54,092 bases of DNA from an uncultured Anaerolineaceae bacterium (GCA_964353875.1 CAYGXU010000009.1:1-54092), one strand, 5' to 3'; numbered from the stretch's first letter, positions 7,609 through 43,570 are shown. The notes: generated by a model from the letters alone, not told the origin. Numbers and translations: made by a program.

Positions 7609-8694
7609 TTATTCAAGCTCATTTGCCTGGCTATTCAATACAGCCGTTACTCCGGTATCCCAACGGTGCCAATCACCGAAACATTCTTTAAGGATGCGCA
7701 GGCCTTCACCAATGGGTTTCTGACCAATCGCTTCCATGTCTGCATCCACCATGATACGGGCTAATTGCTTATATGTAATTTTCGGTTCCCATTCAAGCCA
7801 TTTACGTGCTTTGGATGCATCAGCCAGCAGAAAATCTACTTCCGTAGGTCGGAAATATCGAGCGTCAATCTCGACATACTTTTCCCAATCCAATCCAGCG
7901 TATTCGAAGGTCTCGATGACGAATTCTCGCATACTTGGGGCTACACCCGTGCCGACAACATAGTCATCCGGATGATCCTGCTGCATCATTTGCCACATGG
8001 CTTCAACATATTCTGGAGCATACCCGTAATCCCTGCGCGCGTCCAGGTTTCCCAGATAAACCTTCTTTTGTGTTCCAGCTAAGATGCGCGCCACCGCTCG
8101 TGTGACTTTGCGAGAGAGGAAAGTGGGCCCACGGCGAGGGCTCTCATGGTTAAAGAGGATTCCATTGGAAGCAAACATATTGTATGCCTGACGATAATTC
8201 ACCGTCATCCAAAAACCATATAACTTCGCGATCGCATAAGGGCTACGTGGTTGAAAAGGGGTGGCTTCATTTTGAGGAGGTGGCGCGCTTCCAAAAATTT
8301 CACTGGAAGAGGCCTGATAGAAACGAGCAGCAATCCCGCTGCGTCGGATCGCCTCTAAGATGCGTGTCGTCCCGAGACCGGTCACCGATCCAGTATACTC
8401 AGGCATCTCAAAGCTTACCTTCACATGAGACTGTGCTCCCAGGTGATAAATCTCATCCGGTCGAACATTGTAGATTAGATTGGTTAATTGTTCAGCGTTC
8501 GACAAATCGCCATAATGTAAATATAAACGGGCTGAAGGGTCATGGGGGTCCTGGTAAATGTGATCGATCCTTTCGGTGTTGAAGGTGCTCGCTTTGCGGA
8601 TCATTCCATGGACTTCATAACCTTTGCTAAAAAGGAATTCAGCCAGATAGGACCCATCCTGGCCAGTGATTCCGGTGATTAAAGCCTTCAACAT
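7609..8694 (-). CDS. gmd: GDP-mannose 4,6-dehydratase
   Basis: [44 protein letters not shown]..., YAIAKLY catalytic motif, 361 aa. There is an AGGAG Shine-Dalgarno sequence 6 nt upstream. Confidence 0.95.
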
Positions 8695-20020: not shown

Positions 20021-20785
20021 TTATCCCTCGATGGCATTTCGCACTTGATTTGCATATTCGCCAAATTGCTGTGTATGTGCCATGCTTAGTTCACGCGGTC
20101 GAGGGAGCGTATTACGTAGGTCTAACCTCACGGTTCCCGGACGTGGGCTTAGCACCAAGATCCGGTCCGACAATAATACCGCCTCCGTGATCGAGTGCGT
20201 CACCATGGCAACCGTCACTCGACGCTTGCTCCAAATCTGTATCAACTCACTTCCCATCCGTTCACGCGTGAGGGCGTCCAATGCCCCAAAAGGCTCGTCA
20301 AGGAGCAGGATTTCCGGATCATGGATCAAGGCGCGCGCGATGGCCACGCGTTGCGCCATACCGCCAGAAAGGTCATGTGGATAATTTTTTTCGAATCCGT
20401 TGAGTCCAACGAGATCGATGAGAGATTGCGCTCGCTCTCGGATATCAGCCCGTGGCAATCCGTGCAACTCCAAGGGTAAGGCGACGTTCTCCAATACCGT
20501 GCGCCATGGCATGAGATTCGCTTGTTGGAAAACGAAACCGATCCGTTTCCTAGGTCGTAAAAGGGGTTCCCCTTCAAAATAGACATTCCCTTCGCTTGGA
20601 AGCATTAATCCGGCAAGTAATTTCAGCAACGTCGTCTTTCCACAACCCGAAGGTCCGACAACACAGAGAAATTCCTGCGGGAATAAGGAAAAACAGATAT
20701 CCTGCAAAGCGACCAAAGCCGAATTGCCATTTGGAAAGGTCTTCCCAAGATCAAGAGCAACTAAAATCGGTTCAGGACAGTTCAT
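20021..20785 (-). CDS. ABC transporter ATP-binding protein (nitrate/sulfonate/taurine NitT/TauT family type)
   Basis: Walker A GPSGCGKTT, signature LSGGMAQRV, Walker B LLLDEPFGALD, 254 aa. Confidence 0.9.
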   Translation of the reverse strand: MNCPEPILVALDLGKTFPNGNSALVALQDICFSLFPQEFLCVVGPSGCGKTTLLKLLAGLMLPSEGNVYFEGEPLLRPRKRIGFVFQQANLMPWRTVLENVALPLELHGLPRADIRERAQSLIDLVGLNGFEKNYPHDLSGGMAQRVAIARALIHDPEILLLDEPFGALDALTRERMGSELIQIWSKRRVTVAMVTHSITEAVLLSDRILVLSPRPGTVRLDLRNTLPRPRELSMAHTQQFGEYANQVRNAIEG

Positions 20786-21765
20786 GGCTCAGGAAGGTAA
20801 TCATTCGTATATGCCTTCGCAACATCTAAAACGCTCTCAAGAAGTCCCATTTCGAGAAGAATGGCGTGCATGTTCTCCCATGCCTCCGGTTTCGAAGTCC
20901 CCAATTGTTGAATTTCCCAAAAAGGGATACTTGCTTTCAGAACCTTTAACAAGACCTCTTGATTCGCCTGTTCGAGGCCTTCTACATATTGCTTACATAT
21001 TTCGAAAGCACCCTCGGGATCCGCAATCGTGTCATTAATCCCCTTCAAACTTGCAGCAATCATCGAGCGGACCAATTCCGGATTTTCCGCAAGGACCTTC
21101 TCGCTGGTGATCAATCCATTCGATGCCAGCGGCACATAATCAGCCACTTTAAAGACCCGCATCGGCATCCCTTGCGCTTCCAATTGGATGGGTTCGTTGT
21201 TGGCATAAATGACAATCGCATCTTCCTGACCGGCTAACATCGCCTCCACCTGGTTATAACCAATCGAGTCTAATGTGACCGCTCCTTCAGCAACACCTAC
21301 TGCTCCGATCAAGGCCCGAAAGCCGATATAGGAAGCCCCGTATAGCCCGGGAATGCCAATTTTCTTGCCCATCAAATCCTCAGGAGCTCGAATGTCACTC
21401 TCCTCCGGAACAGCGACGGCGACAGGATAATCCTGCCACCAGGCCATCACATAGACAACCGGTATTCCCTGAGCTCTTGCCAGGAGGACTTGCTCCCCCG
21501 AAACCACCGCGAATGGGACCTCCCCTGCTCCAACCAGGGTGACCGCCTCGTTTTCAGGGAGGTGTTCATATTGAACATCCAAACCTACATTGGTAAAGTA
21601 CCCCTTTTCAATCGAGACATAGAAAGGTGCAAATTGCACATCCGGCCGAAAAGGCAATGCTAATCTCACTGCTTCTAAATCCTGGCCCCCAAATATCCCA
21701 TTCCCAGTGCAACTTGTGATGACAAAGCAAAGAAGGATGAAGGGGATTAGAGTGGATGTTTTCAT
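20782..21765 (-). CDS. ABC transporter substrate-binding lipoprotein, NMT1/THI5-like
   Basis: From ATG 21765 the protein starts MKTSTLIPFILLCFVITSC (lipobox). The body resembles SsuA/ThiY/NMT1-type binding proteins (FAPFYVSIEKGYF). The longer ORF-track start would overlap the permease gene. Confidence 0.85.
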   Translation of the reverse strand: MKTSTLIPFILLCFVITSCTGNGIFGGQDLEAVRLALPFRPDVQFAPFYVSIEKGYFTNVGLDVQYEHLPENEAVTLVGAGEVPFAVVSGEQVLLARAQGIPVVYVMAWWQDYPVAVAVPEESDIRAPEDLMGKKIGIPGLYGASYIGFRALIGAVGVAEGAVTLDSIGYNQVEAMLAGQEDAIVIYANNEPIQLEAQGMPMRVFKVADYVPLASNGLITSEKVLAENPELVRSMIAASLKGINDTIADPEGAFEICKQYVEGLEQANQEVLLKVLKASIPFWEIQQLGTSKPEAWENMHAILLEMGLLESVLDVAKAYTNDYLPEP

Positions 21766-21775
21766 GAGTCCTCCA

Positions 21776-22600
21776 TTATTTCTTGGTGGCATCTCGTCGC
21801 CACCCAAGGAATCTAAGCTCAAAAAGGGTTACAACACTGTAAAGAATAAGCGCCATCGCCACCAACGCAAACACGGCCACAAAAACCATGGGAATATCAT
21901 ACATGCCACGGGCGAGATTGATGATGAATCCCAAACCCTCATCCGCCGCCACGAACTCACCAACAACTGCTCCGATAACCGACAATGTCGCCCCAACCTT
22001 CAAGCCACCGAGAAGTACCGGCATTGCCGCCGGCGCTTCAAGCTTGAAAAATACTTGCCAACGTTTCGCCTGAAGGGAGCGCATCAGATCATGCAAATCT
22101 TCAGGCACAGAACGAACGGCGACAACGGTGTTGACGAGTACAGGAAAGAAGACAATCAGGGCAGAAATGAGCACCTTGGAAAGACGCCCTGATCCAAACC
22201 AGATGATGAGAAGAGGCGCAATCGCAACGATCGGTATGGACTGCGAAGCAACGATGTAGGGTGATAATAGTTTTTCAGCGACACGTGACTTGGCGAGTAG
22301 ATACCCCAGCAATAGGGCGATGGAAATCCCCATTGCCAGGCCACCCAACACCTCCTCCAGGGTCACCAGGCTATGACGAATGATGCTCCCATCCTCGATT
22401 GCAGCAAGGAAGCGTTGCCATACCATCTCCGGTGATGGAAGAATAAAGGCAGATATCCCCGTCCAATGGCTAATGCCGTACCAGACTAAGAAGAAAAATA
22501 GGATTGTGACAAACAAAATCGCAGCATTAGACCAACTCGAATCGATCCGCAATGTGAGCTTCTCTCGTCGATTATTTTTCTTATTTGGAAGCAGATCCAT
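21776..22600 (-). CDS. ABC transporter permease (SsuC/TauC-like)
   Basis: 274 aa with 6 TM segments and an EAA-like loop (DLMRSLQAKRWQVFFKLEAPAAMP). Confidence 0.9.
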   Translation of the reverse strand: MDLLPNKKNNRREKLTLRIDSSWSNAAILFVTILFFFLVWYGISHWTGISAFILPSPEMVWQRFLAAIEDGSIIRHSLVTLEEVLGGLAMGISIALLLGYLLAKSRVAEKLLSPYIVASQSIPIVAIAPLLIIWFGSGRLSKVLISALIVFFPVLVNTVVAVRSVPEDLHDLMRSLQAKRWQVFFKLEAPAAMPVLLGGLKVGATLSVIGAVVGEFVAADEGLGFIINLARGMYDIPMVFVAVFALVAMALILYSVVTLFELRFLGWRRDATKK

Positions 22601-22698: not shown

Positions 22699-22859
22699 GG
22701 CAAGCCGTACGCGTGAACGACAAGATGTCGTTTGGACTAACCTTCTTCCATCCGGACTATACCGTCGGCTCCGGAATTAAACCGGATCATGCATTTTCAT
22801 GCTCGCGGGCTTTACCGCCGGTCGGGAGTTGGACTGATAATCCTCACCCTGCCCCGAAG
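22692..22859 (-). promoter_or_regulatory. Structured 5' leader element (riboswitch-like aptamer candidate, class not recognised)
   Basis: A perfect 10-bp long-range helix pairs CUUCGGGGCA (22858..22849) with UGCCCCGAAG (22701..22692). It encloses several local hairpins: GCAU-GAAA-AUGC, UCCGG-uuuaauu-CCGGA, AACGACA-ucu-UGUCGUU, and ACCGGCGG/CCGACGGU. Confidence 0.5.
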
Positions 22860-22892
22860 GTCGAATTATTCAATTGTTCACATATTGCACGA

Positions 22893-32031: not shown

Positions 32032-34374
32032 ATGAAACGAGTAAAAATCATCATCCTGAGTTTGCTACTTCTTCCCGCCCTTCTCTTCTCGACCACACCC
32101 GCCCGGGCGGATGGAATCATCATCCCTGAACCACCCATCTGTGACCCGGGACCTTGCCCAAGACCCATCCCCATAGCCCAGTTGGCGATCAAATATCACC
32201 GTGTTCAAGTTACTATCGAAGATCAAGTGGCGACGACCCATGTCGATCAGGTCTTCCGCAACGATAACGATTGGCAAATCGAGGGTACCTATATCTTCCC
32301 TATCCCTACTGGGGCGAGCATCAGCCAATTCACCATGTGGGTGGATGGCGAGGCGGTTGAAGGGAAAATCCTTACCAAGGAAGAAGCGCGTAGGACCTAT
32401 GAAGACATTGTTCGCAACTTGCGAGATCCCGCCTTGCTCGAATACATCGATCGAGGCGCAGTCCAGGCCTCTATCTTCCCCATCCCCCCCGGTGGCGAAC
32501 GACGGATCGAACTGGAATATAGCGAGGTGCTCATAGCCGATCAAGGATTGATCCACTATCGCTATCCGCTGAACACAGAGAAATTTTCAACATTACCCTT
32601 AGAGGAGGTGGCCGTATCCATCCGAGTAGAATCATCCGTCCCGGTTCGGGCGGTCTATTCCCCCTCGCATGAAGTATCGATCGAACGCGATAGCGAGTAT
32701 CAGTTTGTAGTCGGTTATGAAAAATACGATGTCACGCCCGACAAAGACTTTGATCTCTTCTACTCGGTTGCCGAGGAGGATTTCGGCTTGAACTTGATTT
32801 CTTTCCGAGATTCCCAAAGCGAAGATGAGGATGGTTTCTTCCTGCTGATCGCCGCTCCCAGTGTCAAGATCGATCCAGACAAGGCCATCGTCAAAGATGT
32901 GATCCTTGTCCTCGATCGGTCCGGTAGCATGGAAGGGGAGAAGTTCCAACAGGCACAAGAAGCGCTTCACTTTGTCTTAGATCATATCAATCCTGAAGAT
33001 CGTTTCAACATCATCGCATTCAGCACGGGACTCCAATCCTACGCCACCTCCCTTCGACCCAACTCCGAGGTGGATGAAGCCAAGCGTTGGGTGGACTCGC
33101 TCTCCGCCAACGGTTCGACCGATATCAACCGGGCTTTGTTAGAGGCGCTTGCCCTGATAGGTCGACAACGCCCGACCATGCTGATCTTCCTTACCGATGG
33201 CCTGCCTACGGAAGGCGTCACAGATACGCAACAAATCATCGCCAATATTGCTGACAATGCCCCTGAAAATGTGCGCCTTTTCGCCTTTGGCGTTGGTTAC
33301 GATGTCGACACATTCTTGTTGGATACGCTCACCCAGGAGAACCATGGGACGACCACCTACGTGACGCCCGACCAGGCCATCGATGAAACCGTTTCCGGTT
33401 TCTACGCCAAAATCAACGACCCGGTCCTCACCGATGTGGAGCTTAATTTTGGCGATATCGTGGTCTATGACCTCTACCCTGAACCATTGCCGGATTTATT
33501 CGCCGGAACCCAACTGATCGCGGTTGGGCGCTACAAGGCTTCTGGAACCGAGACTGTACAGCTATCCGGCGAGGTGAACGATGAGGCAGTTTCTTTCGAC
33601 TACATGGAGCAACGATTCCGATCGGCTGGTGGACCGGACTTTCTGCCACGCTTATGGGCAACCCGCAAGATCGGCGCTTTGCTTAATCAAATTCGATTGA
33701 AGGGTGCAGAAGAAGAACTGGTTGACCAAATAGTGCAACTCAGCATTCGCTATGGGATCATCACTCCCTATACTTCTTTCCTGGTAACTGAGCCGGCTGT
33801 CCTGGGCGCCGAGGCGCAAGACGCGATCTCCTCCGACGCTTATGAGAATTATTTGGCAGCTCCATCCGCCGTTGCAGGGGAAGCGGCGGTGGAAAGAGCG
33901 GCTGAATGGGGCAAGATCATGGGCGCCGATGTGCCTAGTGGTCCCGGAGCAGATGTGGCTGACCTGGTTCGCATCGCGGGAGCGAATACCTTCCGCTATG
34001 TCGACGGCATCTGGATCGATACGCGCTTTGACCCCGATAAGATGGAGACCCAAAAGGTGCCCTTTCTTTCGGAGGATTACTTCGAGCTTGCCAGCGCCAG
34101 TGTTGATATCGCCGCTGCTTTCGCTCTGGGCGAGCGCGTGATCATTATCGTGGGCGAGGACGCCTACGAAGTTGTCGGGGTCGAGGACGAGGGCGATGAG
34201 ATCTCCATCCCACCCGCGTCAACGGAGGATGCTTCTCAGGAAACAACTGAAATTGACGAGCCTATTCAAGACAATCCAACCAAACCGAAGGGTACATTGC
34301 CGTTATGCTCGAGTGCTCTCATCGCACTTGGGTTGATGATTCTTCCGATTAGCTTACGTACGCGGCGATCATAG
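32032..34374 (+). CDS. Secreted VIT + von Willebrand factor A domain protein with a C-terminal hydrophobic anchor
   Basis: Signal peptide (…TPARA/DG), an N-terminal VIT-like region, a vWA MIDAS motif (VLDRSGSMEG), and a C-terminal ALIALGLMILPISL segment followed by RTRRS. There is a GGAGG Shine-Dalgarno sequence 7 nt upstream. Confidence 0.85.
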   Translation: MKRVKIIILSLLLLPALLFSTTPARADGIIIPEPPICDPGPCPRPIPIAQLAIKYHRVQVTIEDQVATTHVDQVFRNDNDWQIEGTYIFPIPTGASISQFTMWVDGEAVEGKILTKEEARRTYEDIVRNLRDPALLEYIDRGAVQASIFPIPPGGERRIELEYSEVLIADQGLIHYRYPLNTEKFSTLPLEEVAVSIRVESSVPVRAVYSPSHEVSIERDSEYQFVVGYEKYDVTPDKDFDLFYSVAEEDFGLNLISFRDSQSEDEDGFFLLIAAPSVKIDPDKAIVKDVILVLDRSGSMEGEKFQQAQEALHFVLDHINPEDRFNIIAFSTGLQSYATSLRPNSEVDEAKRWVDSLSANGSTDINRALLEALALIGRQRPTMLIFLTDGLPTEGVTDTQQIIANIADNAPENVRLFAFGVGYDVDTFLLDTLTQENHGTTTYVTPDQAIDETVSGFYAKINDPVLTDVELNFGDIVVYDLYPEPLPDLFAGTQLIAVGRYKASGTETVQLSGEVNDEAVSFDYMEQRFRSAGGPDFLPRLWATRKIGALLNQIRLKGAEEELVDQIVQLSIRYGIITPYTSFLVTEPAVLGAEAQDAISSDAYENYLAAPSAVAGEAAVERAAEWGKIMGADVPSGPGADVADLVRIAGANTFRYVDGIWIDTRFDPDKMETQKVPFLSEDYFELASASVDIAAAFALGERVIIIVGEDAYEVVGVEDEGDEISIPPASTEDASQETTEIDEPIQDNPTKPKGTLPLCSSALIALGLMILPISLRTRRS

Positions 34375-34390
34375 AGGCGTATTGAAATAC

Positions 34391-34528
34391 GGAGGGCGGG
34401 TTTCCATACACGCCGCCACATCCCATCCGTGGCACCGGTTTCTACTCCCGCCGTTACATCTTGCGGGCTTTCAAGCTTGCCCCTACATTTCCGCCGATCC
34501 CCGTAGGGTGGGTTTCTATACCCGCCCG
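34391..34528. repeat. Cluster of four degenerate REP-like GC-rich palindromic units (GGGYGGGTTTCYAyACCCGCCC type)
   Basis: Units lie at about 34391-34417, 34431-34453, 34460-34486 and 34501-34528. The last one folds as GGGTGGGT-ttcta-TACCCGCCC. Confidence 0.6.
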
Positions 34529-34694: not shown

Positions 34695-35732
34695 TTAATT
34701 CCCCCCCTGACAGCCCGTGTTTACGAATTCACCTGTGAAATCAGAAAACTTCGCTGCATTATCCCGTACTATGACTTTGATCTTGATTTGCGAATCGGGC
34801 TGCACGCCAGGAATTGTCGTTGCCCCTCGATATGTGCCATTCCAGGTACCATAAGGGGTGTAGCTTTGACTAACGGCATCCAGACCCTTGCCACAGATAT
34901 CCGATTCTGAGGGCAGGATACTACACCAGAGACTGACATATCCACCACCATCCCCCAGTCCGGATGAAGGCCCAATTCCGTAAGAGACTGCCTGATCCTT
35001 TACATTGGCAATCTGGACATCAATATGGCAATTTTCGCCATCTCGGTTGAGGACGACGACAAGCTGAAGCAATTCTGGCTTCTGGCTATCCGCTGGTGTC
35101 GGCGTTGGAGTAATGGTCGGCGTGTTTGTAATTGTTGGCGTAGGCGTTATTGAAGGCGTCGGCGTATTCGACGGTGTGGGTGTGTTCGACGCTGTGGGTG
35201 TATTCGACGGTGTGGGCGTGTCCGATGGTGTGGGGGTAATCGACGGCGGTAATGTCGGAGGTGGGCGGCGGGTGCGAGTGGGTGTTGGCGGGATGGGCGT
35301 TCGGCTGGGTGTGGGCGTCTTTGATGGCGTTGAAGTATTGGTTGCCGTCCTGGTGAGCGAAGGCGACGGGGTCACCGTGGCGGTCAGGGTCGCCGTCGCA
35401 CTGGGCGTGATGGTCGGCGTATCCGTCGGAACCAATACCGTCACGGTTGGAGAGGGCTCTTTCTCCTCAGCTAATTCGTCCCCATCAACTTTGATTGATT
35501 GGTCGCGCAGGAGCTCTTCAATAATCGATAGCCTCAGAGCGCCTAACGAACCCAGCAGGTCCTCCGCGCCGTAATCTGCGCCCAGACGGGATTGCAGGCT
35601 GACCGATAAAGGTAATAAACGCGGCCAATTCAGGACCATGCTTGTGATGGCAGCAATTAATAGAATCGTCAACAAAAAGATCAGCAGAGCTTCTAACGGA
35701 AACTGATCCCTGCGGGAGGTTTCATCTTCCAT
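34695..35732 (-). CDS. Membrane-anchored surface protein with a Thr/Pro-rich linker and a Cys-containing C-terminal domain (paralog A)
   Basis: N-terminal TM (LEALLIFLLTILLIAAI), the juxtamembrane motif ADYGAEDLLGSLGALRLSIIEELL, about 130 aa of TP/SP repeats, and a ~120-aa C-terminal domain shared with 35879..37105. Confidence 0.7.
   Translation of the reverse strand: MEDETSRRDQFPLEALLIFLLTILLIAAITSMVLNWPRLLPLSVSLQSRLGADYGAEDLLGSLGALRLSIIEELLRDQSIKVDGDELAEEKEPSPTVTVLVPTDTPTITPSATATLTATVTPSPSLTRTATNTSTPSKTPTPSRTPIPPTPTRTRRPPPTLPPSITPTPSDTPTPSNTPTASNTPTPSNTPTPSITPTPTITNTPTITPTPTPADSQKPELLQLVVVLNRDGENCHIDVQIANVKDQAVSYGIGPSSGLGDGGGYVSLWCSILPSESDICGKGLDAVSQSYTPYGTWNGTYRGATTIPGVQPDSQIKIKVIVRDNAAKFSDFTGEFVNTGCQGGN
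35155..35244. repeat. Five tandem 18-bp repeats encoding S-(N/D/I)-T-P-T-(P/A) hexapeptides
   Basis: Units start at 35155, 35173, 35191, 35209 and 35227 (GGTGTGGGTGTRTTCGAC-like). They lie inside the linker of 34695..35732. Confidence 0.85.
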
Positions 35733-35878
35733 AATCCCGGCCCCCCTTTCATTGATTTACTTACCGCTTGGATGAATGGCTAGATCATAACAAGTATAAC
35801 CCCAAATTGGAGGAGTCGAGGCATTGAAATTGAGAAACGGGGTGGTGGGTTTATTCCATGATGGAAGAATAGGAACAA

Positions 35879-37105
35879 TTATTGGGGCTTTCCACATTCG
35901 GCCGGCATAGTGTACTCTCCAAGAAAATGGCATGTTTCGTGACCAGCCTGATCACGGGCTTTTGAGTAGAGCGCAATATGGAATCGATCCGGAGCTGGGG
36001 ACGCCCAAGATGGATCGATTTCAATCTGAATTGAACCATCGTAACAGCCATCCCATCCACCCTCTTGTGTCGGACCGCCACTACAGAGGGTCAGAGGATT
36101 GGAGAAAATCCAGTCTGTTACGCCGCCATTAACTGGTTCAACCTTATATTTCAGTTTAACCCATTCGATCCCACTTGATGGCGCAGGATCTACCACTCGT
36201 AAGTCCGTGACTGTTACTGTGATTGTACAGACATTCAAATTCCCAGGCGCAGGATCAAGGATGCCCCCGGATATTTGTGGTGGCTGTGTATCGTTCGGCT
36301 TGGGAGTCTCAACTGGCTGGCTTTGAATGATGCATCGCAAAGACTTGCTAGAAGCGGTGGCCTCCTTTCCGTTCAGATGCCAGAATAGCGAGTCGCCATT
36401 AAAAATATTACTGAAACTAGCACTGGGGTATTCCGGAGAGCGTCCGGGGAGGAAGCTTGTAGGCTGACCTCGATCCTTCGGTTCTGGGGAAAAGTAATTA
36501 GCAGAACCAATGGGGATCTCCACCGTCTGATCGTTGGGATTCTGATATCCCCAATAAGCGGTATAAGAATGATCCTCATTTTCTGTGATGCACTCCAGAA
36601 GCGGGATGACTTCTGAAATCCCGGGAGTTGCAGTCGGGACAGAGTTAGTCTTCGTTGCTGTCGGAGTCACAATGGGCGTCATCGTCATTGTGGCTATGGG
36701 TTTGGTCGTCGCGAGAGGTAATGGAGTTGCAGCCGTTTCAGTTGTCGTTGGAGGGATGATCACTGTCTCGGTGGGGAATGTTGGCTGAGAAACGATAGCC
36801 GCCTGCCCAGTGGCCGTTGGAACCAGCCCCCATAAATCTTGTTCTAATTTAGTCCTGGTTTCGGATGATAATTCTGCATCTCCAAAGATCTCATCCAGGA
36901 TGGCCAGTTGCAGGGTTTTCAGCGTGCCGCCAAAGATATCCGGACCATAATCCGCAAGCAGGTTAGATCGTAAGTGGAGATAGAATGAAGATCTAATCTC
37001 AGGGGAAAATCCCATCCAGAGGATAAGTAGGATCCATAGGAATAATACAGGCAAAAAAACCCCTAAAGCTTCGATCAACCAGGAGCTTTCTGATCGCCTG
37101 TCCAA
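35879..37105 (-). CDS. Membrane-anchored surface protein with a Thr/Pro-rich linker and two extracellular domains (paralog B)
   Basis: N-terminal TM (WLIEALGVFLPVLFLWILLILW), the motif ADYGPDIFGGTLKTLQLAILDEIF paralogous to protein A, a T/P-rich linker, a middle domain (YTAYWGYQNPN...GQPTSFLPG) and a C-terminal Cys-containing domain. It overlaps the upstream gene by 31 nt. Confidence 0.7.
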   Translation of the reverse strand: MDRRSESSWLIEALGVFLPVLFLWILLILWMGFSPEIRSSFYLHLRSNLLADYGPDIFGGTLKTLQLAILDEIFGDAELSSETRTKLEQDLWGLVPTATGQAAIVSQPTFPTETVIIPPTTTETAATPLPLATTKPIATMTMTPIVTPTATKTNSVPTATPGISEVIPLLECITENEDHSYTAYWGYQNPNDQTVEIPIGSANYFSPEPKDRGQPTSFLPGRSPEYPSASFSNIFNGDSLFWHLNGKEATASSKSLRCIIQSQPVETPKPNDTQPPQISGGILDPAPGNLNVCTITVTVTDLRVVDPAPSSGIEWVKLKYKVEPVNGGVTDWIFSNPLTLCSGGPTQEGGWDGCYDGSIQIEIDPSWASPAPDRFHIALYSKARDQAGHETCHFLGEYTMPAECGKPQ

Positions 37106-38982
37106 TTCTGATCCAACCCTCCCGCGCCACTCGTGTAACGCACCCTACGAGCTTGAACTTCGTAGACATTAACAGTCTGCCCAGAATGACGCAAACGCGC
37201 CCGACCATAACGTCCGAATTTAAATTGCTGACGAGCATCCGACAGGCATTCATATGTTGACTGAGAGATCAGGATAGCTCCGCCTCCCAATTCTCGACAT
37301 ATCTCCTGTACGCTGCGCGCTTCTAGTACAATATCGCCAATTACGATTGATTTCAACTGGGACAAATTTCCTACTCCCCCAGCCACGATCTCTCCAGTCG
37401 CAAGCCCCAGCCACAATTCCATGGCAGGCAATCCCTTGCTGGAACGATTTTTATTCCAGCGTTCGATCAAGCCCACAATTTCTAAACTAGCTTGAATTCC
37501 CCGAATCGCTCCATCTTGAGCAGTGAGTTGCTGTGGCAGAATTCCAAAGGCTGCCATCATAGTCCCCCCATCAAAAGTACTGATTTGACCGCCATATCGG
37601 GATAGGACTGGCTCCATGGCACGATACAATTCATCCATAGTTCGAATAAGCGCTTCAGGATCGTCACTACCCATCACAGCGAGAAAATTGATCATGTCGG
37701 CAACCAGAATGGTCGCATCAGAGCAGATCCCTCGCCTCGCTCCCGGCATTGTCTCTGCTTGGTCTAATTGAGAAAAGCGATTCATAGGTGGGGCCTGGAA
37801 AGCACTGGCATAAGAGCCGCTCTCCCGTAAACCCGTGACCAGGGTGTTAAACGAATCAGCTAATAAACCGATCTCATCGTTGCTACGCGTCTTTACCTGG
37901 GTATCGAGATCCCCTGCCGCAACTTGGGCAGAAGCCGCGGCGATTTCAATGAGTGGGCGTGTGATCGTATGAGAGATCAGCAGCCCAATAGTCACTACAA
38001 GTACCAATGCTGCTGCACCATAACGAGCCACCAGAAGCACATTTTCAAAAAATGCGCCCTGCAATTGGATATCCTGCTTGGCAATCCCCAAGAAGCCCAA
38101 ATCGACAGTTTTATTCCTTGCCTCGAATTGGGTTAACACCTCTCGAAAAGAATCCCCGGCTACACTCACATTTCTTACTATACTTTGCTCGGCGCTTTTT
38201 GTAACGATTTCGGAAATGAGCGAGCTCTCGAGCGTGAGTCGATCTTTGGGTTCAAGTTGAAATGATGATCCCCGGAGAGCGCCAGTTGTGAGATCATAGA
38301 CGCTGATGTTCACCCCGATCTCATCTTGAAGCTGTAAAAGCATATTCTCCAAGTAATTCCCTACTAGAACAGCCCCAATAATGGCTCCCTGGTTGTCCCT
38401 TAAAGGCGCGCCTAAAACAAAGACACTGATTTCATTTTGATCCATTTGTAACGCTTCCAGGCCAACCCACTTATCTCCCTGAGCGTCGTCTTCCCCAGAT
38501 AGGATCTGATTGATAAAGGTCCAATCTCTGTATAGGGTCTCACCGCGAAGAATCTCATAATCGCCAGCTGAGCCTTGAGGATGATGGCGTATCGTCAGTA
38601 AGCTGATGGCTTCTCCATCCAACACAACGGCTACGTCCACGCCAGCATTAATAACCAGGGGCAGCACCCTGGCGCGCAAATCCTCCGCGCTCTGCATTGC
38701 AACTCCCTGAGGGACACCCTCGGTATTCGCAATCAAACGTTCCAACTCGAGCATATCCCGCTCAACGCGGACAATGGCATCTGTGACCCGCTTCCCTCGA
38801 TCTGCAAGGTCCTCTAAAAAGTGAAACTCATCCATCTGACTCATCACTTGGTTTACAAGAAAAGCTGCCCCTAGCCCAAGCAACAGTGCCAGAAAGATGA
38901 ACGGCAGTGTAATTTTCCAACGTAAACTAAATCGAACGCGTGCCCGAGAACCTTTTCTCACACTCATCGTCAGCCTTAACAT
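37075..38982 (-). CDS. Membrane sensor protein: extracytoplasmic Cache-like domain, HAMP domain, and a class III nucleotidyl cyclase-like (apparently degenerate) domain
   Basis: Two TM segments flank a ~290-aa loop. HAMP segment: RPLIEIAAASAQVAAGDLDTQVKTRSNDEIGLLADSFNTLV. Cyclase-like segments: ILVADMINF..., GGTMMAAFG, LGLATGEIVAGGVG, IGDIVLEARS. Confidence 0.75.
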   Translation of the reverse strand: MLRLTMSVRKGSRARVRFSLRWKITLPFIFLALLLGLGAAFLVNQVMSQMDEFHFLEDLADRGKRVTDAIVRVERDMLELERLIANTEGVPQGVAMQSAEDLRARVLPLVINAGVDVAVVLDGEAISLLTIRHHPQGSAGDYEILRGETLYRDWTFINQILSGEDDAQGDKWVGLEALQMDQNEISVFVLGAPLRDNQGAIIGAVLVGNYLENMLLQLQDEIGVNISVYDLTTGALRGSSFQLEPKDRLTLESSLISEIVTKSAEQSIVRNVSVAGDSFREVLTQFEARNKTVDLGFLGIAKQDIQLQGAFFENVLLVARYGAAALVLVVTIGLLISHTITRPLIEIAAASAQVAAGDLDTQVKTRSNDEIGLLADSFNTLVTGLRESGSYASAFQAPPMNRFSQLDQAETMPGARRGICSDATILVADMINFLAVMGSDDPEALIRTMDELYRAMEPVLSRYGGQISTFDGGTMMAAFGILPQQLTAQDGAIRGIQASLEIVGLIERWNKNRSSKGLPAMELWLGLATGEIVAGGVGNLSQLKSIVIGDIVLEARSVQEICRELGGGAILISQSTYECLSDARQQFKFGRYGRARLRHSGQTVNVYEVQARRVRYTSGAGGLDQNWTGDQKAPG

Positions 38983-38998
38983 CCATTTCTTGACTCGA

Positions 38999-39223
38999 TT
39001 AGCGCAAGAAAAATGATAGAAGGATTAAAATAACTACAAAGCTACCGGCGATCACGCCAATTCTTCGAAGATCCCTTTTCACGTAACTATAGTCCGGCTG
39101 AAAATCCCTCTGCCCTCCAATCCCTCGCGCTTGTCCGGAGGAGGCTACATTAGATAAAGTTGCATCAGATACGATGGGTACTGATGGTCGGCGGATTTTC
39201 TTTTTCTTTTCCTTTTTGCTCAT
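38999..39223 (-). CDS. Small basic protein with a C-terminal TM helix
   Basis: 74 aa with a Lys-rich N-terminus and IGVIAGSFVVILILLSFFL at the C-terminus. It sits between the sortase and sensor genes with short gaps. Confidence 0.5.
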   Translation of the reverse strand: MSKKEKKKKIRRPSVPIVSDATLSNVASSGQARGIGGQRDFQPDYSYVKRDLRRIGVIAGSFVVILILLSFFLR

Positions 39224-39250
39224 AGAGTTTCTCTCCTAGGGTATGAATAT

Positions 39251-40165
39251 CTACTGTACTTGTAGTTCGCCGAAGACCACAATTCGTTGCGTATCGACGA
39301 GGTAGGGGTAACAAGAGATGAGAGTGATAGTCGGCGTTTCAGTTGCCTCCATCACACTCACCTCCGTTGAAACCACAATACGTAAACCAGTGACTAAGTA
39401 GACATACTCGCGCGTGGCAGTCATGATACGGATCTCATCCCCTGGTTTAAGCTGATCGAGATTGCGGAAGAGTTCCCCAAAAATGTCATTATGAGCGGAT
39501 AAAATCAAATTACCTGACTGTCCTGGGTCTGCGCTGCTAATATGCTGACCAACCCCTTTCTTTAATTGCTCCCATCCATCCCCTTGCACAATCGGCTGGG
39601 GATTCGCCCACAAAGATTCAATGAGAATCTGCCGAGCTTGCTCAGGGCCGGGCGTGGGAATGGGGAACTGAGGCAAAGATTGTACCAAGGGACGTAAATT
39701 TGCGGGGATCTCAGCGTCATTTGGCCTTGCTCCCCCAGGGGAAGTCGGTGGCATGTGCCCCGAAGGCAGCACAACCGCCGTGATCAAGGGAGTGGTTGTG
39801 GATGTGGGCAATGTCATCGCCTCTTCCGCCTCTCGGTTGAGCACTTGCAATAGGCCAAATCCTTTTAAGAATAGGAAAGCCATTCCGAAAACTGCCAAAA
39901 TTTCAACCCATAATAGCATTCGATTGAAGACAGCACGAAACATATTCGTAAAGTTGATTCGAGGTTTCTCATCGCCATCGTTCTCCCCCTTCCCCTGCTC
40001 AAATTGACTTTCTTCATCGACTTCGGTGACTGGGAGTGCCCTGCCAGTCTTACGAAAACGTTGCAATCGCGTGGCATGCGCCTCACGCTTCTTGCGCGCC
40101 AGGACTGCCTCCAATTCCTCAATGGAATAGTCCCCGATCGAATGTCTTTCCCTGCCCATGCTCAC
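39251..40165 (-). CDS. Sortase family transpeptidase (class E-like) with an N-terminal cytoplasmic extension and a TM anchor
   Basis: GNLILSAHND (catalytic His), TLISCYPY (TLxTC Cys motif) and QRIVVFG (Arg). Confidence 0.85.
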   Translation of the reverse strand: MSMGRERHSIGDYSIEELEAVLARKKREAHATRLQRFRKTGRALPVTEVDEESQFEQGKGENDGDEKPRINFTNMFRAVFNRMLLWVEILAVFGMAFLFLKGFGLLQVLNREAEEAMTLPTSTTTPLITAVVLPSGHMPPTSPGGARPNDAEIPANLRPLVQSLPQFPIPTPGPEQARQILIESLWANPQPIVQGDGWEQLKKGVGQHISSADPGQSGNLILSAHNDIFGELFRNLDQLKPGDEIRIMTATREYVYLVTGLRIVVSTEVSVMEATETPTITLISCYPYLVDTQRIVVFGELQVQ

Positions 40166-42181: not shown

Positions 42182-42919
42182 TTAGAAAAGGTGAATCGTT
42201 AAACCGGCCAAAGTGCCTAGACCGATCGAACAGAGGGTTCCGATGAGGAAATACTCGGCAAAAGCTGGGTCTTTAAACTGAGGGTAACGCGCAGCAGCCT
42301 TGGCGGCAACAGCAAAACCCACTGCCGTCAAGCCTCCCGCCAGGATGAGCGCTAACGTAAACAAACGCTCCAGGATGCCAATCACCTCTCCAGCTCCAAG
42401 GTGGGGCTCGATTCGATCTGGGACACCTCCCGCCCGTACCAGTCCTATCACCCCAACTGTCACCATCGTAGCCCAGCAGAACATCGCCACCACCGCTAAA
42501 AGGACCATCAGAATTTGGGTTGGAAAATCAGGAGGGGCAACATTAGCAAGCGGGATTACGTCATTAAAGCCAAGTGCAGCACTCCCGGCAGGGAACAAGG
42601 CGAACAAGAAGGGGAGCAGGTGTGCCCAAGGCTTACCCAACTTATTGGGGCCCTTCCCCTCGCGCTTCACCAATCGACGAATCGTAAACCCGGCTGCCTC
42701 GCCTGAAATCACTGCGATCACAAAAAGAGCAAGCAGGACGAAAAAACGTCTTGTTTGAAGGAACCAGACGGTGAAAACCAAGCACCAGATGAGAATCCGC
42801 ATTAAAGTACGTTGCCATCTCCATCGAGATGTGAAACGCTCCAGAGCGGACTTGCGTGTTTGGAAACCATATTCCGTGATGAAAATATTCAGGAGAGCGA
42901 GGAGATAAAGATCGACCAT
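42182..42919 (-). CDS. DUF3307 (SatC-like) integral membrane protein
   Basis: 245 aa and multi-pass, with an N-terminal ..ITEYGFQT.. segment resembling the DUF3307 DF.lQ motif. It starts 6 nt after the stop codon of the SatD-family gene upstream of it. Confidence 0.55.
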   Translation of the reverse strand: MVDLYLLALLNIFITEYGFQTRKSALERFTSRWRWQRTLMRILIWCLVFTVWFLQTRRFFVLLALFVIAVISGEAAGFTIRRLVKREGKGPNKLGKPWAHLLPFLFALFPAGSAALGFNDVIPLANVAPPDFPTQILMVLLAVVAMFCWATMVTVGVIGLVRAGGVPDRIEPHLGAGEVIGILERLFTLALILAGGLTAVGFAVAAKAAARYPQFKDPAFAEYFLIGTLCSIGLGTLAGLTIHLF

Positions 42920-42925
42920 CTGAGG

Positions 42926-43570
42926 TTACCTCTGTGAATTAAAAGCACTCTGGAGGGCAAGGGTCCAAATATGGGTGGCTTCAAGAACCATTTCCGCCTC
43001 CGCTGCTCGAAGATGCTGGCTGACGGCGCTGGGTGTGATCCCTAGTTCAGCCGCGATCGATTTGCCGGACATGCCACCCATGGTGAGGTCCACAACCTGT
43101 TGTTGACGTTCGGTCCATCCATAGCGTAACCCCGCGTACAGCAAAGAATAAATCCCGAAACAGGCCTCTTCCGCTTCAGCCACTACTTCGATCTGCGTCG
43201 CTCGGCGCTCCGCCTGTTCAATTGCTGCTCTTGCCCGATGAAAACAGGGACCATCCATCCCCAAGGCGATGGGCTCTAAGGTCGTATCAAGCCGTCCAAC
43301 CCCCAAACCCATTCTCAGCTCCACGGGATGGACGATCGAGCGGAACAAGGCCATGAGTCGGTCGATCTCCTTCACCGAATGTAATAAGCCCTGGAACTCA
43401 TCGCCGATCGTGAGCACGAAATGGGAAGCGATCCCGGCTGAAAAACGCTCATTGACAAGATCGATTGCCTTCCGCAGCTGCCTTTGAAGCTCCTTCCGAT
43501 CCTGCACCCCTCTCGAACCAACCACATCCCCAATCACAGCCAGGAAAATTGATCGTCCCATTTCAAACAA
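42926..43570 (-). CDS. SatD family protein (cyclase-like fold with a C-terminal HTH)
   Basis: AVIGDVVGSR..., LTIGDEFQGLL, RMGLGVGRLDT...GMDGPCFHRARAAIE, and a C-terminal LuxR/sigma-R4-like helix-turn-helix (SGKSIAAELGITPSAVSQHL). Confidence 0.7.
   Translation of the reverse strand: MFEMGRSIFLAVIGDVVGSRGVQDRKELQRQLRKAIDLVNERFSAGIASHFVLTIGDEFQGLLHSVKEIDRLMALFRSIVHPVELRMGLGVGRLDTTLEPIALGMDGPCFHRARAAIEQAERRATQIEVVAEAEEACFGIYSLLYAGLRYGWTERQQQVVDLTMGGMSGKSIAAELGITPSAVSQHLRAAEAEMVLEATHIWTLALQSAFNSQR

Follow-up and report, generated by a model that had tools for sequence, protein, structure and literature searches.

Apparently uncatalogued N-terminally anchored proteins encoded after a dCache_3-HAMP receptor gene, beside a sortase gene, in an uncultured Anaerolineaceae bacterium

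Gene organization of the cluster

A cluster of five minus-strand genes at positions 34695-40165 was analysed in a 54,092-nucleotide (nt) stretch of DNA from an uncultured Anaerolineaceae bacterium (GCA_964353875.1 CAYGXU010000009.1:1-54092), the whole of which is referred to as the window. The cluster begins with the gene for a sortase of 304 amino acids (aa), located at 39251-40165 and recognized both by the open reading frame (ORF) call and by the PF04203 and TIGR01076 models, and continues with a gene for a 74-aa tail-anchored protein (38999-39223, ORF call), on which the family models were silent. These are followed by the gene for a 635-aa receptor with dCache_3, HAMP and Guanylate_cyc domains (37075-38982, ORF call and Pfam) and by genes for two proteins designated here B (408 aa, 35879-37105, with a TTG start, ORF call and orthologue alignment) and A (345 aa, 34695-35732, ORF call). 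A plus-strand gene for a 780-aa VIT-vWA protein (32032-34374, Pfam VIT and VWA), convergent with the gene for A, lies just outside the region covered by a preliminary description of the cluster.

From the sortase gene to the gene for A, the intervals are 27 nt, 16 nt, an overlap of 31 nt between the receptor and B genes, and 146 nt between the B and A genes, so that the tight packing and the gaps given in the preliminary description agree exactly with the ORF calls. In the source annotation, B is given a start at an internal ATG 30 codons downstream, which yields a protein of 378 aa and would remove the N-terminal helix; the TTG start at 37105 was preferred because the orthologue alignment supports the longer form. 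No family in Pfam or NCBIfam matched A, B or the 74-aa protein. Scanning the locus for promoters and terminators gave counts within shuffle expectation, and an Rfam scan gave no match inside the cluster.

Proteins A and B are paralogous

Protein B consists of a signal-anchor helix (aa 9-33), a conserved juxtamembrane motif (LRSNLLADYG...LQLAILDEI, aa 45-76), the sequence VPTAT (aa 95-99, 36809-36823, minus strand), a Thr/Pro-rich stalk, a middle beta-sandwich (aa ~165-258, with Cys172 and Cys258) and a C-terminal beta-sandwich (aa ~270-405, with Cys293, Cys404 and a WVKLKY motif). Protein A has a signal-anchor helix (aa 13-34), the same motif (aa 46-77), VPTDT (aa 101-105), a long Thr/Pro-rich stalk and a C-terminal beta-sandwich (aa ~215-345) homologous to the C-terminal domain of B.

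In BLASTP comparisons of A and B the N-terminal region alone matched (B aa 41-100, E 3e-4) and the C-terminal domains gave no match, whereas hhalign comparison of orthologue profiles aligned the two C-terminal domains over 107 columns with a probability of 98.1% (E 6.5e-14). The same profiles compared with the middle domain of B as a control gave only 0.2-0.3%. By these alignments, A and B are true paralogues and B carries one extra domain, as the preliminary description had claimed on both counts.

The AlphaFold2 model of B had a predicted local distance difference test (pLDDT) score above 90 for the transmembrane (TM) helix and both beta domains and showed the Thr/Pro stalk as disordered; the juxtamembrane helices scored 40-83, and no confident fold was obtained for them or for the VPTAT segment. 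For both models searched, Foldseek returned weak, generic immunoglobulin (Ig)-like sandwiches alone (E ~1e-4; among them the PPAD Ig-like domain, RbmA, SrpA and an S-layer protein), and thus neither domain nor fold searches assigned A and B a well-known unrelated role; such an assignment would have spoken against the grouping first proposed. Each beta domain of B contains a Cys pair that is invariant in the homologue alignment, which fits an extracytoplasmic location. The C-termini of the two proteins (...NTGCQGGN in A and ...AECGKPQ in B) have neither a TM helix nor a basic tail and carry no sorting signal, which bears out the earlier view that they are not obvious sortase substrates.

About 35 full-length homologues of B were found with 40-53% identity, all in Chloroflexota/Anaerolineae assemblies, together with many shorter relatives that have only the N-terminal region and the C-terminal domain in common with B. 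Orthologues of A come after orthologues of B in five loci (L001, L002, L004, L039 and L041). A word-indexed homologue search with the C-terminal domain of A found a single near-identical fragment, and one with the alignment of the N-terminal region found nine short fragments only, both results being limited by the index. The WVKLKY motif is nearly invariant in the C-terminal domains of B-type and short-type proteins, and A of the window has YVSLWC. Among relatives that have no middle domain, most (42 of 54) show an A-x-A site after the N-terminal helix, which suggests a cleavable signal peptide in these relatives; the site is absent in A, B and the B-type orthologues.

Several further features were observed in this part of the locus. 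The middle domain of B (~95 aa, 36320-36625, minus strand) has the pattern Cys...FGY.N.N...DRGQP...Cys and no Pfam match, and it is also present in unrelated proteins, for example a Kelch-repeat protein (P0082) and a cadherin-like protein with the annotation Vicinamibacteria (P0090). A Val/Gly-rich ORF of 153 aa runs antisense to the stalk of A (35113-35574, plus strand), and the same pattern is seen in L001 and L011; almost certainly it reflects the repetitive ACN/CCN codons rather than a real gene. In L004 (11804-14635), and also in L005, a gene for a 439-aa WXG100-domain protein and small genes are inserted between the B and A orthologues; the insert was read as a toxin/immunity-like cassette, and the B-A junction tolerates insertions.

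The N-module family and its pairing with the receptor

The N-terminal region shared by A, B and their homologues, termed the N-module, is composed of a hydrophobic helix, about 55 residues with two short helices (L.S.L.A(D/N)Y..D and L.(L/I)SI..D) and then PVPT-x-T, after which come a Thr/Pro-rich stalk and a variable beta-sandwich ectodomain. VPTAT was located 15-25 residues past the N-module motifs in 71 of the 80 N-complete homologues, and VPSAT or VSTAT in eight more. An exhaustive search with an N-module profile yielded 432 clusters at 50% identity, and the module was N-terminal in every one. Distant members retained the motifs and PVPT(A/V/I)T, and the ectodomain varied across the family, being Ig-like, a CLIPPER domain or missing altogether. 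Protein B displays every feature of the family, and so does A with its VPTDT variant. Searches of Pfam with 34 N-modules at E ≤ 1 identified no recurring family, and A and B had no match at E ≤ 0.01. The N-module proteins seem to form an uncatalogued family, undescribed in the libraries and literature that were searched.

Gene neighbourhoods of A and B homologues, a survey of which the preliminary description had recommended, were collected in three censuses and revealed conserved linkage. The first census, on one genome per GTDB species, started from B homologues or from the motif VPTATAR[DN]F and gave 35 non-redundant loci, all from Chloroflexota; the genome scan used a narrow alignment and is therefore biased towards members of the VPTATAR[DN]F type. 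The receptor gene was immediately upstream of the N-module gene in 34 of these 35 loci, the order was sortase, 74-aa gene where present, receptor and one or two N-module genes, and a sortase gene was found in all 32 loci that extended far enough. The second census comprised metagenome loci reached through the sortase; among those with sortases ~56-66% identical to the window enzyme, an N-module gene came after the receptor gene in all 22 with room downstream.

The third census drew on the exhaustive profile search, from which six distant members (profile E ~1e-9 to 1e-12) were looked up, and in all six the N-module gene stood right after a receptor gene or receptor-gene fragment, with an overlap of 4 or 8 nt between the two genes in five. 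The upstream receptor had the architecture dCache_3-HAMP-HD-GYP in L119, dCache_3-HAMP-cyclase in L121 and REC-dCache_3-HAMP-cyclase in L123, and C-terminal receptor fragments (cyclase or HD-GYP) lay at the contig ends in L120, L122 and L124. No sortase or VIT-vWA gene was found on the three long contigs, L119, L121 and L123. Of the linkage to both sortase and sensor that had been claimed for A and B, the part concerning the receptor thus recurred throughout, and the part concerning the sortase did not extend to the distant members. Because the pairing holds across cyclase and HD-GYP receptors, the invariant partner of the family is the dCache_3-HAMP part of the receptor with any output, and A and B are most likely extracytoplasmic partners of the receptor.

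Three loci departed from the usual spacing. The 2.6-kb contig L035 is the sole locus in which the N-module gene comes straight after the sortase gene with the receptor gene missing between them, an arrangement that could stem from a genuine deletion or from misassembly. In L011 (7950-8670) and L012 (~7705-8684), a gap of 0.7-1 kb separates the receptor gene from the first N-module gene, unlike in B-type loci, where these two genes overlap. The gap in L011 contains no convincing ORF, and for L012 the assessment used gene coordinates alone. The gap in L011 and L012 may be a regulatory region.

The receptor and its degenerate cyclase domain

The receptor contains a first TM segment (aa 22-43), dCache_3 (aa 56-289), a second TM segment (aa 315-336), HAMP (aa 335-387) and a class III cyclase-homology domain (aa 422-606; PF00211, 5.6e-10). 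Alignment to solved cyclases and to orthologues showed three substitutions in the window receptor: Thr stands at the position of the substrate Lys, Gly at that of the second metal-binding Asp and Leu at that of the transition-state Asn, the window reading STFDGG where cyclases have K-FDGD and GDIVLEAR where they have GDTVN..R. The window copy therefore lacks the full set of residues of an active class III cyclase (metal Asp pair, Lys/Asp, Asn and Arg), and the designation pseudo-cyclase used in the preliminary description was supported by these three replacements.

The canonical catalytic residues were kept in ~13-14 of the 34 genome-derived orthologues and in six of the 24 metagenome-derived ones; the orthologue in L006 is a canonical example. 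Catalysis was lost repeatedly (in about two thirds of orthologues) while the receptor was kept, and it is therefore not the conserved function. Since the window receptor cannot signal via cyclic AMP, its output would be through protein contacts or a partner. The widespread pseudo-cyclase state seems to be undescribed in the literature and libraries searched.

The sortase and its 74-aa companion

In the sortase, a conserved helix at the cytoplasmic N-terminus (aa 13-44) and a TM segment (aa 83-106) precede the catalytic residues His, Cys and Arg, which lie in LSAHND (aa 222-227), TLISC (aa 281-285) and QRIVVF (aa 293-298), respectively, three motifs that are conserved across 29 orthologues. It passed the cutoffs of PF04203 (90.9 bits against 26.6, E 6.6e-26) and TIGR01076 (59.5 bits against 39.35). 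All NCBIfam models for sortase classes remained below cutoff, the top match being SrtD-LPxTATN (82.2 against 140); class E scored 80.4 against 160, class D 76.4 against 165, class C 59.7 against 160 and TIGR03784 44.3 against 158.25. The best solved relative was 5GO5/5GO6, a class E sortase. The enzyme is accordingly placed near classes D and E but belongs to no class by these models.

In the 29 orthologues the N-terminal cytoplasmic helix and the extracellular pre-catalytic segment are unusually conserved. Within the latter, aa 125-162 (39680-39793, minus strand) form an almost invariant stretch, TPLITAVVLPSGH.PPTSPGGARPN..EIP..LRPLVQS, ahead of the catalytic domain, and its LPSGH portion could be a lid or a pseudo-substrate.

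The 74-aa protein is basic at its N-terminus and has one TM helix, located at the C-terminus. Its gene follows the sortase gene in most loci of both sortase groups and is absent in about one third of genome-derived loci. In the second sortase group (~52-56% identical; ~20 loci with at least 3 kb downstream), the sortase and 74-aa genes are often near dnaA and dnaK, and no receptor, N-module or VIT-vWA gene was found within 10 kb. The sortase and 74-aa genes are thus an older and wider pair, which also occurs without the receptor and A/B-type genes.

The VIT-vWA protein as candidate sortase substrate

The preliminary description centred the cluster on the sortase and overlooked the convergent VIT-vWA gene, which encodes an LPXTG-like tripartite tail. 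The protein has a Sec signal peptide (ARA|D), a VIT domain (6.6e-31) and a VWA domain (8.6e-18) with an intact DxSxS metal-ion-dependent adhesion site (MIDAS) at aa 295-299, and it ends in TLPLCSS, a TM helix and RTRRS (aa 755-780, 34294-34371, plus strand). The TIGR03788 model, 'marine proteobacterial sortase target', matched with 293.6 bits (E 2.8e-87), below its cutoff of 551.65. Tails of orthologues have the consensus (S/R)LPC(P/A)G followed by a TM helix and a basic tail.

The VIT-vWA gene was convergent with and adjacent to the module in 28 of the 35 loci with enough sequence (21 of 25 and 7 of 10 in the two sets), and in 1.25 Mb of related DNA its orthologues hold the sole convincing tripartite sorting-type signals (motif, TM helix and basic tail). 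NCBIfam sorting-signal models applied to five VIT-vWA tails gave sub-threshold matches to the TM part only, and no LPXTG or CTERM model fitted. No other sorting enzyme for a Cys-containing tail (exosortase, rhombosortase or CPBP) is encoded in the window. These results make the VIT-vWA protein the likeliest, and a probable, substrate of the sortase, and in LPC(P/A)G a sortase near classes D and E may recognize a sorting signal not described before.

In L078 (2020-5135), the genes for the sortase and the 74-aa protein are accompanied by one for a 231-aa protein, which may be Uma2-like, and by a convergent VIT-vWA gene, without receptor or N-module genes; the VIT-vWA tail there has a TM helix and KKK and no LPC motif. 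The 320-nt convergent gap between the VIT-vWA and A genes of the window contains two copies (34395-34414 and 34507-34526, plus strand) of a 20-nt element, GG(C/T)GGGTTTC(C/T)ATAC(A/C)CGCC, for which 0.01 copies are expected by chance and which occurs nowhere else in the window.

Interpretation of the locus

The locus may be interpreted as composite, a reading to which we give an even chance of being right. One unit would consist of the receptor and its partners A and B, and the other of the sortase, the 74-aa protein and the VIT-vWA protein as probable substrate. In the first unit, the N-module would bind the dCache_3-HAMP receptor at its transmembrane part or close to the membrane, and the stalk would hold the beta-sandwich ectodomain in or beyond the wall. 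A and B would then serve the receptor as outlying co-sensors or modulators, much as YycH/YycI do for WalK or QseG for QseE. In the second unit, the sortase would cleave the LPXTG-like C-terminal signal of the VIT-vWA protein and fix this MIDAS-containing, adhesin-like protein to the envelope. The two units lie side by side in one Anaerolineae clade and, judging by the spacing of the genes, are probably co-transcribed. They are always adjacent in the clade that includes the window; there the gene preceding that of the sortase comes from any of three families and the internal order is fixed. This points to co-expression of the units, and perhaps to cross-talk between them, but they are separable elsewhere.

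Several observations weigh against this interpretation. For the first unit, the region that would meet the receptor is the juxtamembrane part of low AlphaFold2 confidence, and the many family members with an A-x-A site may lose the N-terminal helix, which would alter how the receptor could be met. The wider neighbourhood (prfA-prmC-sua5) is also syntenic, so that inheritance alone explains part of the conservation. For the second unit, the tail motif is not LPXTG: Pro or Ala takes the place of Thr, the TM helix is directly adjacent to the motif, and Cys is the only nearly invariant residue, which leaves room for another processing route of the VIT-vWA protein; the window tail, TLPLCSS, is more divergent still than the LPC(P/A)G consensus. 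A VIT-vWA gene is missing within 10 kb in ~20 sortase orthologue loci and is missing from four module loci.

Another explanation, which we consider rather unlikely, is that no physical partnership exists: A and B would be ordinary surface or adhesion proteins sharing an operon or regulon, and the sortase, receptor and VIT-vWA genes would be neighbours by synteny near prfA. The generic Ig-like ectodomains are typical of adhesins and S-layer proteins, the synteny extends beyond the module (prfA is downstream in 13 loci, and SatD and saccharopine dehydrogenase genes recur), and the promoter and terminator scans were uninformative. This explanation is contradicted by a receptor pairing that persists across swaps of the output domain and recurs in otherwise unrelated gene surroundings, where the stop codon of one gene mostly overlaps the start codon of the next; moreover, what the family conserves is the membrane-proximal N-module, not the ectodomain. 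A further candidate is an integrated display machine, in which the sortase joins the VIT-vWA protein through LPC(P/A)G to an amine on the A/B-type stalk proteins, either the Lys of the WVKLKY strand or a new N-terminus after signal-peptide cleavage. The outcome would be a membrane-tethered, integrin- or pilus-like adhesin whose state is monitored by the receptor. The six contiguous genes with their order fixed across the first sortase group and the near invariance of WVKLKY in B-type and short-type domains are consistent with such a machine, as are sortase-built pili, in which tip adhesins also carry vWA/MIDAS and the shafts are Ig-like. It is nevertheless judged unlikely, because A-type domains lack the Lys (YVSLWC in A of the window), A and B have no pilin-type sorting signal, the VIT-vWA gene is missing from the four module loci mentioned above, and distant lineages have the N-module and receptor without sortase or VIT-vWA.

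Alternatively, A and B might be sortase substrates of reversed topology, cut at the N-proximal PVPT-x-T under control of the receptor, with the ectodomain shed or the stub transferred. In 71 of 80 homologues VPTAT is found, with constant spacing from the N-module, and distant members retain PVPT(A/V/I)T while the rest of the stalk drifts, and the 'LPxTATN-specific' class D model was the top, although sub-cutoff, NCBIfam match of the sortase. VPT-x-T, however, misfits L-P-x-T-G/A at positions 4 and 5 and is equally conserved in members without a sortase nearby, for which reasons PVPTAT was rejected as a likely sortase motif; we know of no described system in which a sortase keeps the stub and releases the ectodomain, and PVPT-x-T is more simply read as the helix-stalk junction or a glycosylation start site. 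This explanation is therefore regarded as very improbable. The two units could also form one surface-sensing machine, in which a sortase-fixed MIDAS adhesin is coupled through stalked Ig-like co-receptors to the dCache_3-HAMP receptor and the dead cyclase domain signals by contacts, for example with the sortase cytoplasmic helix or the 74-aa protein. We hold this to be improbable; if true, adhesion state and envelope assembly would regulate each other, loosely like integrin outside-in signalling, and the locus would encode a surface-sensing machine of a kind undescribed in bacteria. With the composite reading preferred, a surface- or adhesion-related, signal-linked role for the cluster, as first suggested, stays reasonable, and a single sortase-centred system that displays A and B is not the best reading.

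Comparison with known systems

Accessory proteins that act on a sensor are known from NlpE-CpxA and RcsF-IgaA. They are likewise known from YycH/YycI, which act on WalK (PMC7355866, PMC5013275), and QseG, which acts on QseE (PMC12691602). As in these systems, one or two paralogues with an N-terminal anchor and an extracytoplasmic body are encoded here right after the sensor and are proposed to be modulators. The likeness to YycH/YycI is one of gene order and topology only, as there is no relation in sequence or fold and A and B have no Pfam match. Unlike WalK and QseE, the sensor is not a histidine kinase but a dCache_3-HAMP protein with cyclase, pseudo-cyclase or HD-GYP output, and unlike YycH/YycI and QseG, A and B have long Thr/Pro stalks and variable beta-sandwich heads. 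Compared with membrane class III adenylate cyclases with Cache and HAMP domains, the receptor has the same layout (TM-dCache_3-TM-HAMP-cyclase homology) and about one third of its orthologues retain every catalytic residue, whereas metal, substrate or transition-state residues are missing from the window copy and from about two thirds of orthologues.

Haft & Varghese 2011 (PMC3237569) described VIT/vWA homologues whose C-terminal sorting signals differ, one kind being LPXTG processed by a dedicated sortase from an adjacent gene. Like the TIGR03784/TIGR03788 system, the present locus encodes a protein with VIT and vWA domains, a signal peptide and a motif-TM-basic tail near a sortase. It differs in that the sortase is not of the TIGR03784 type, the target is below the TIGR03788 cutoff, LPC(P/A)G (TLPLCSS in the window) replaces LPXTG, two to four genes lie between sortase and target, and orthologous sortases also occur without the target. 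Gram-positive clusters for sortase-assembled pili similarly combine a sortase gene with genes for vWA/MIDAS adhesin-like and Ig-like-domain proteins, but A and B have no sorting signal or pilin motif, the sortase is not class C and a receptor gene lies inside the cluster.

Literature searches on sortases in Anaerolineae/Chloroflexi and on the gene combination retrieved nothing specific; in the preliminary description, too, the combination was not recognized as a described system. The LPC(P/A)G tail and the strict pairing of N-module and dCache_3-HAMP also seem to be undescribed in the libraries and literature searched, while the underlying themes, namely sensors that work with accessory proteins and sortases that serve VIT-vWA targets, are already known.

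Other features of the window

The rest of the window is ordinary chromosome and includes a polysaccharide cluster, pst-phoU, prfA-prmC-sua5, SatD and ComM; no tRNA genes were found in it. A flavin mononucleotide (FMN) riboswitch (22736-22865, minus strand; 100.8 bits, Rfam) is located upstream of a set of ATP-binding cassette transporter genes for a permease (21776-22600), an NMT1/THI5-like binding protein (20782-21822) and an ATPase (20021-20785). At 42182-43570 (minus strand), a SatD-family regulator (214 aa) and a 245-aa multi-pass membrane protein are encoded, and the same pair is present near the module in L002.

Biological significance

The findings do not overturn current ideas; they show familiar themes in a new lineage. 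The Anaerolineae, filamentous and for the most part uncultured, are abundant bacteria whose envelope biology is little known. The retention of the receptor while cyclase catalysis was repeatedly lost points to a non-enzymatic role for the cyclase-homology domain, and the pairing of the N-module with dCache_3-HAMP receptors offers a testable case of control by accessory proteins beyond histidine kinases.

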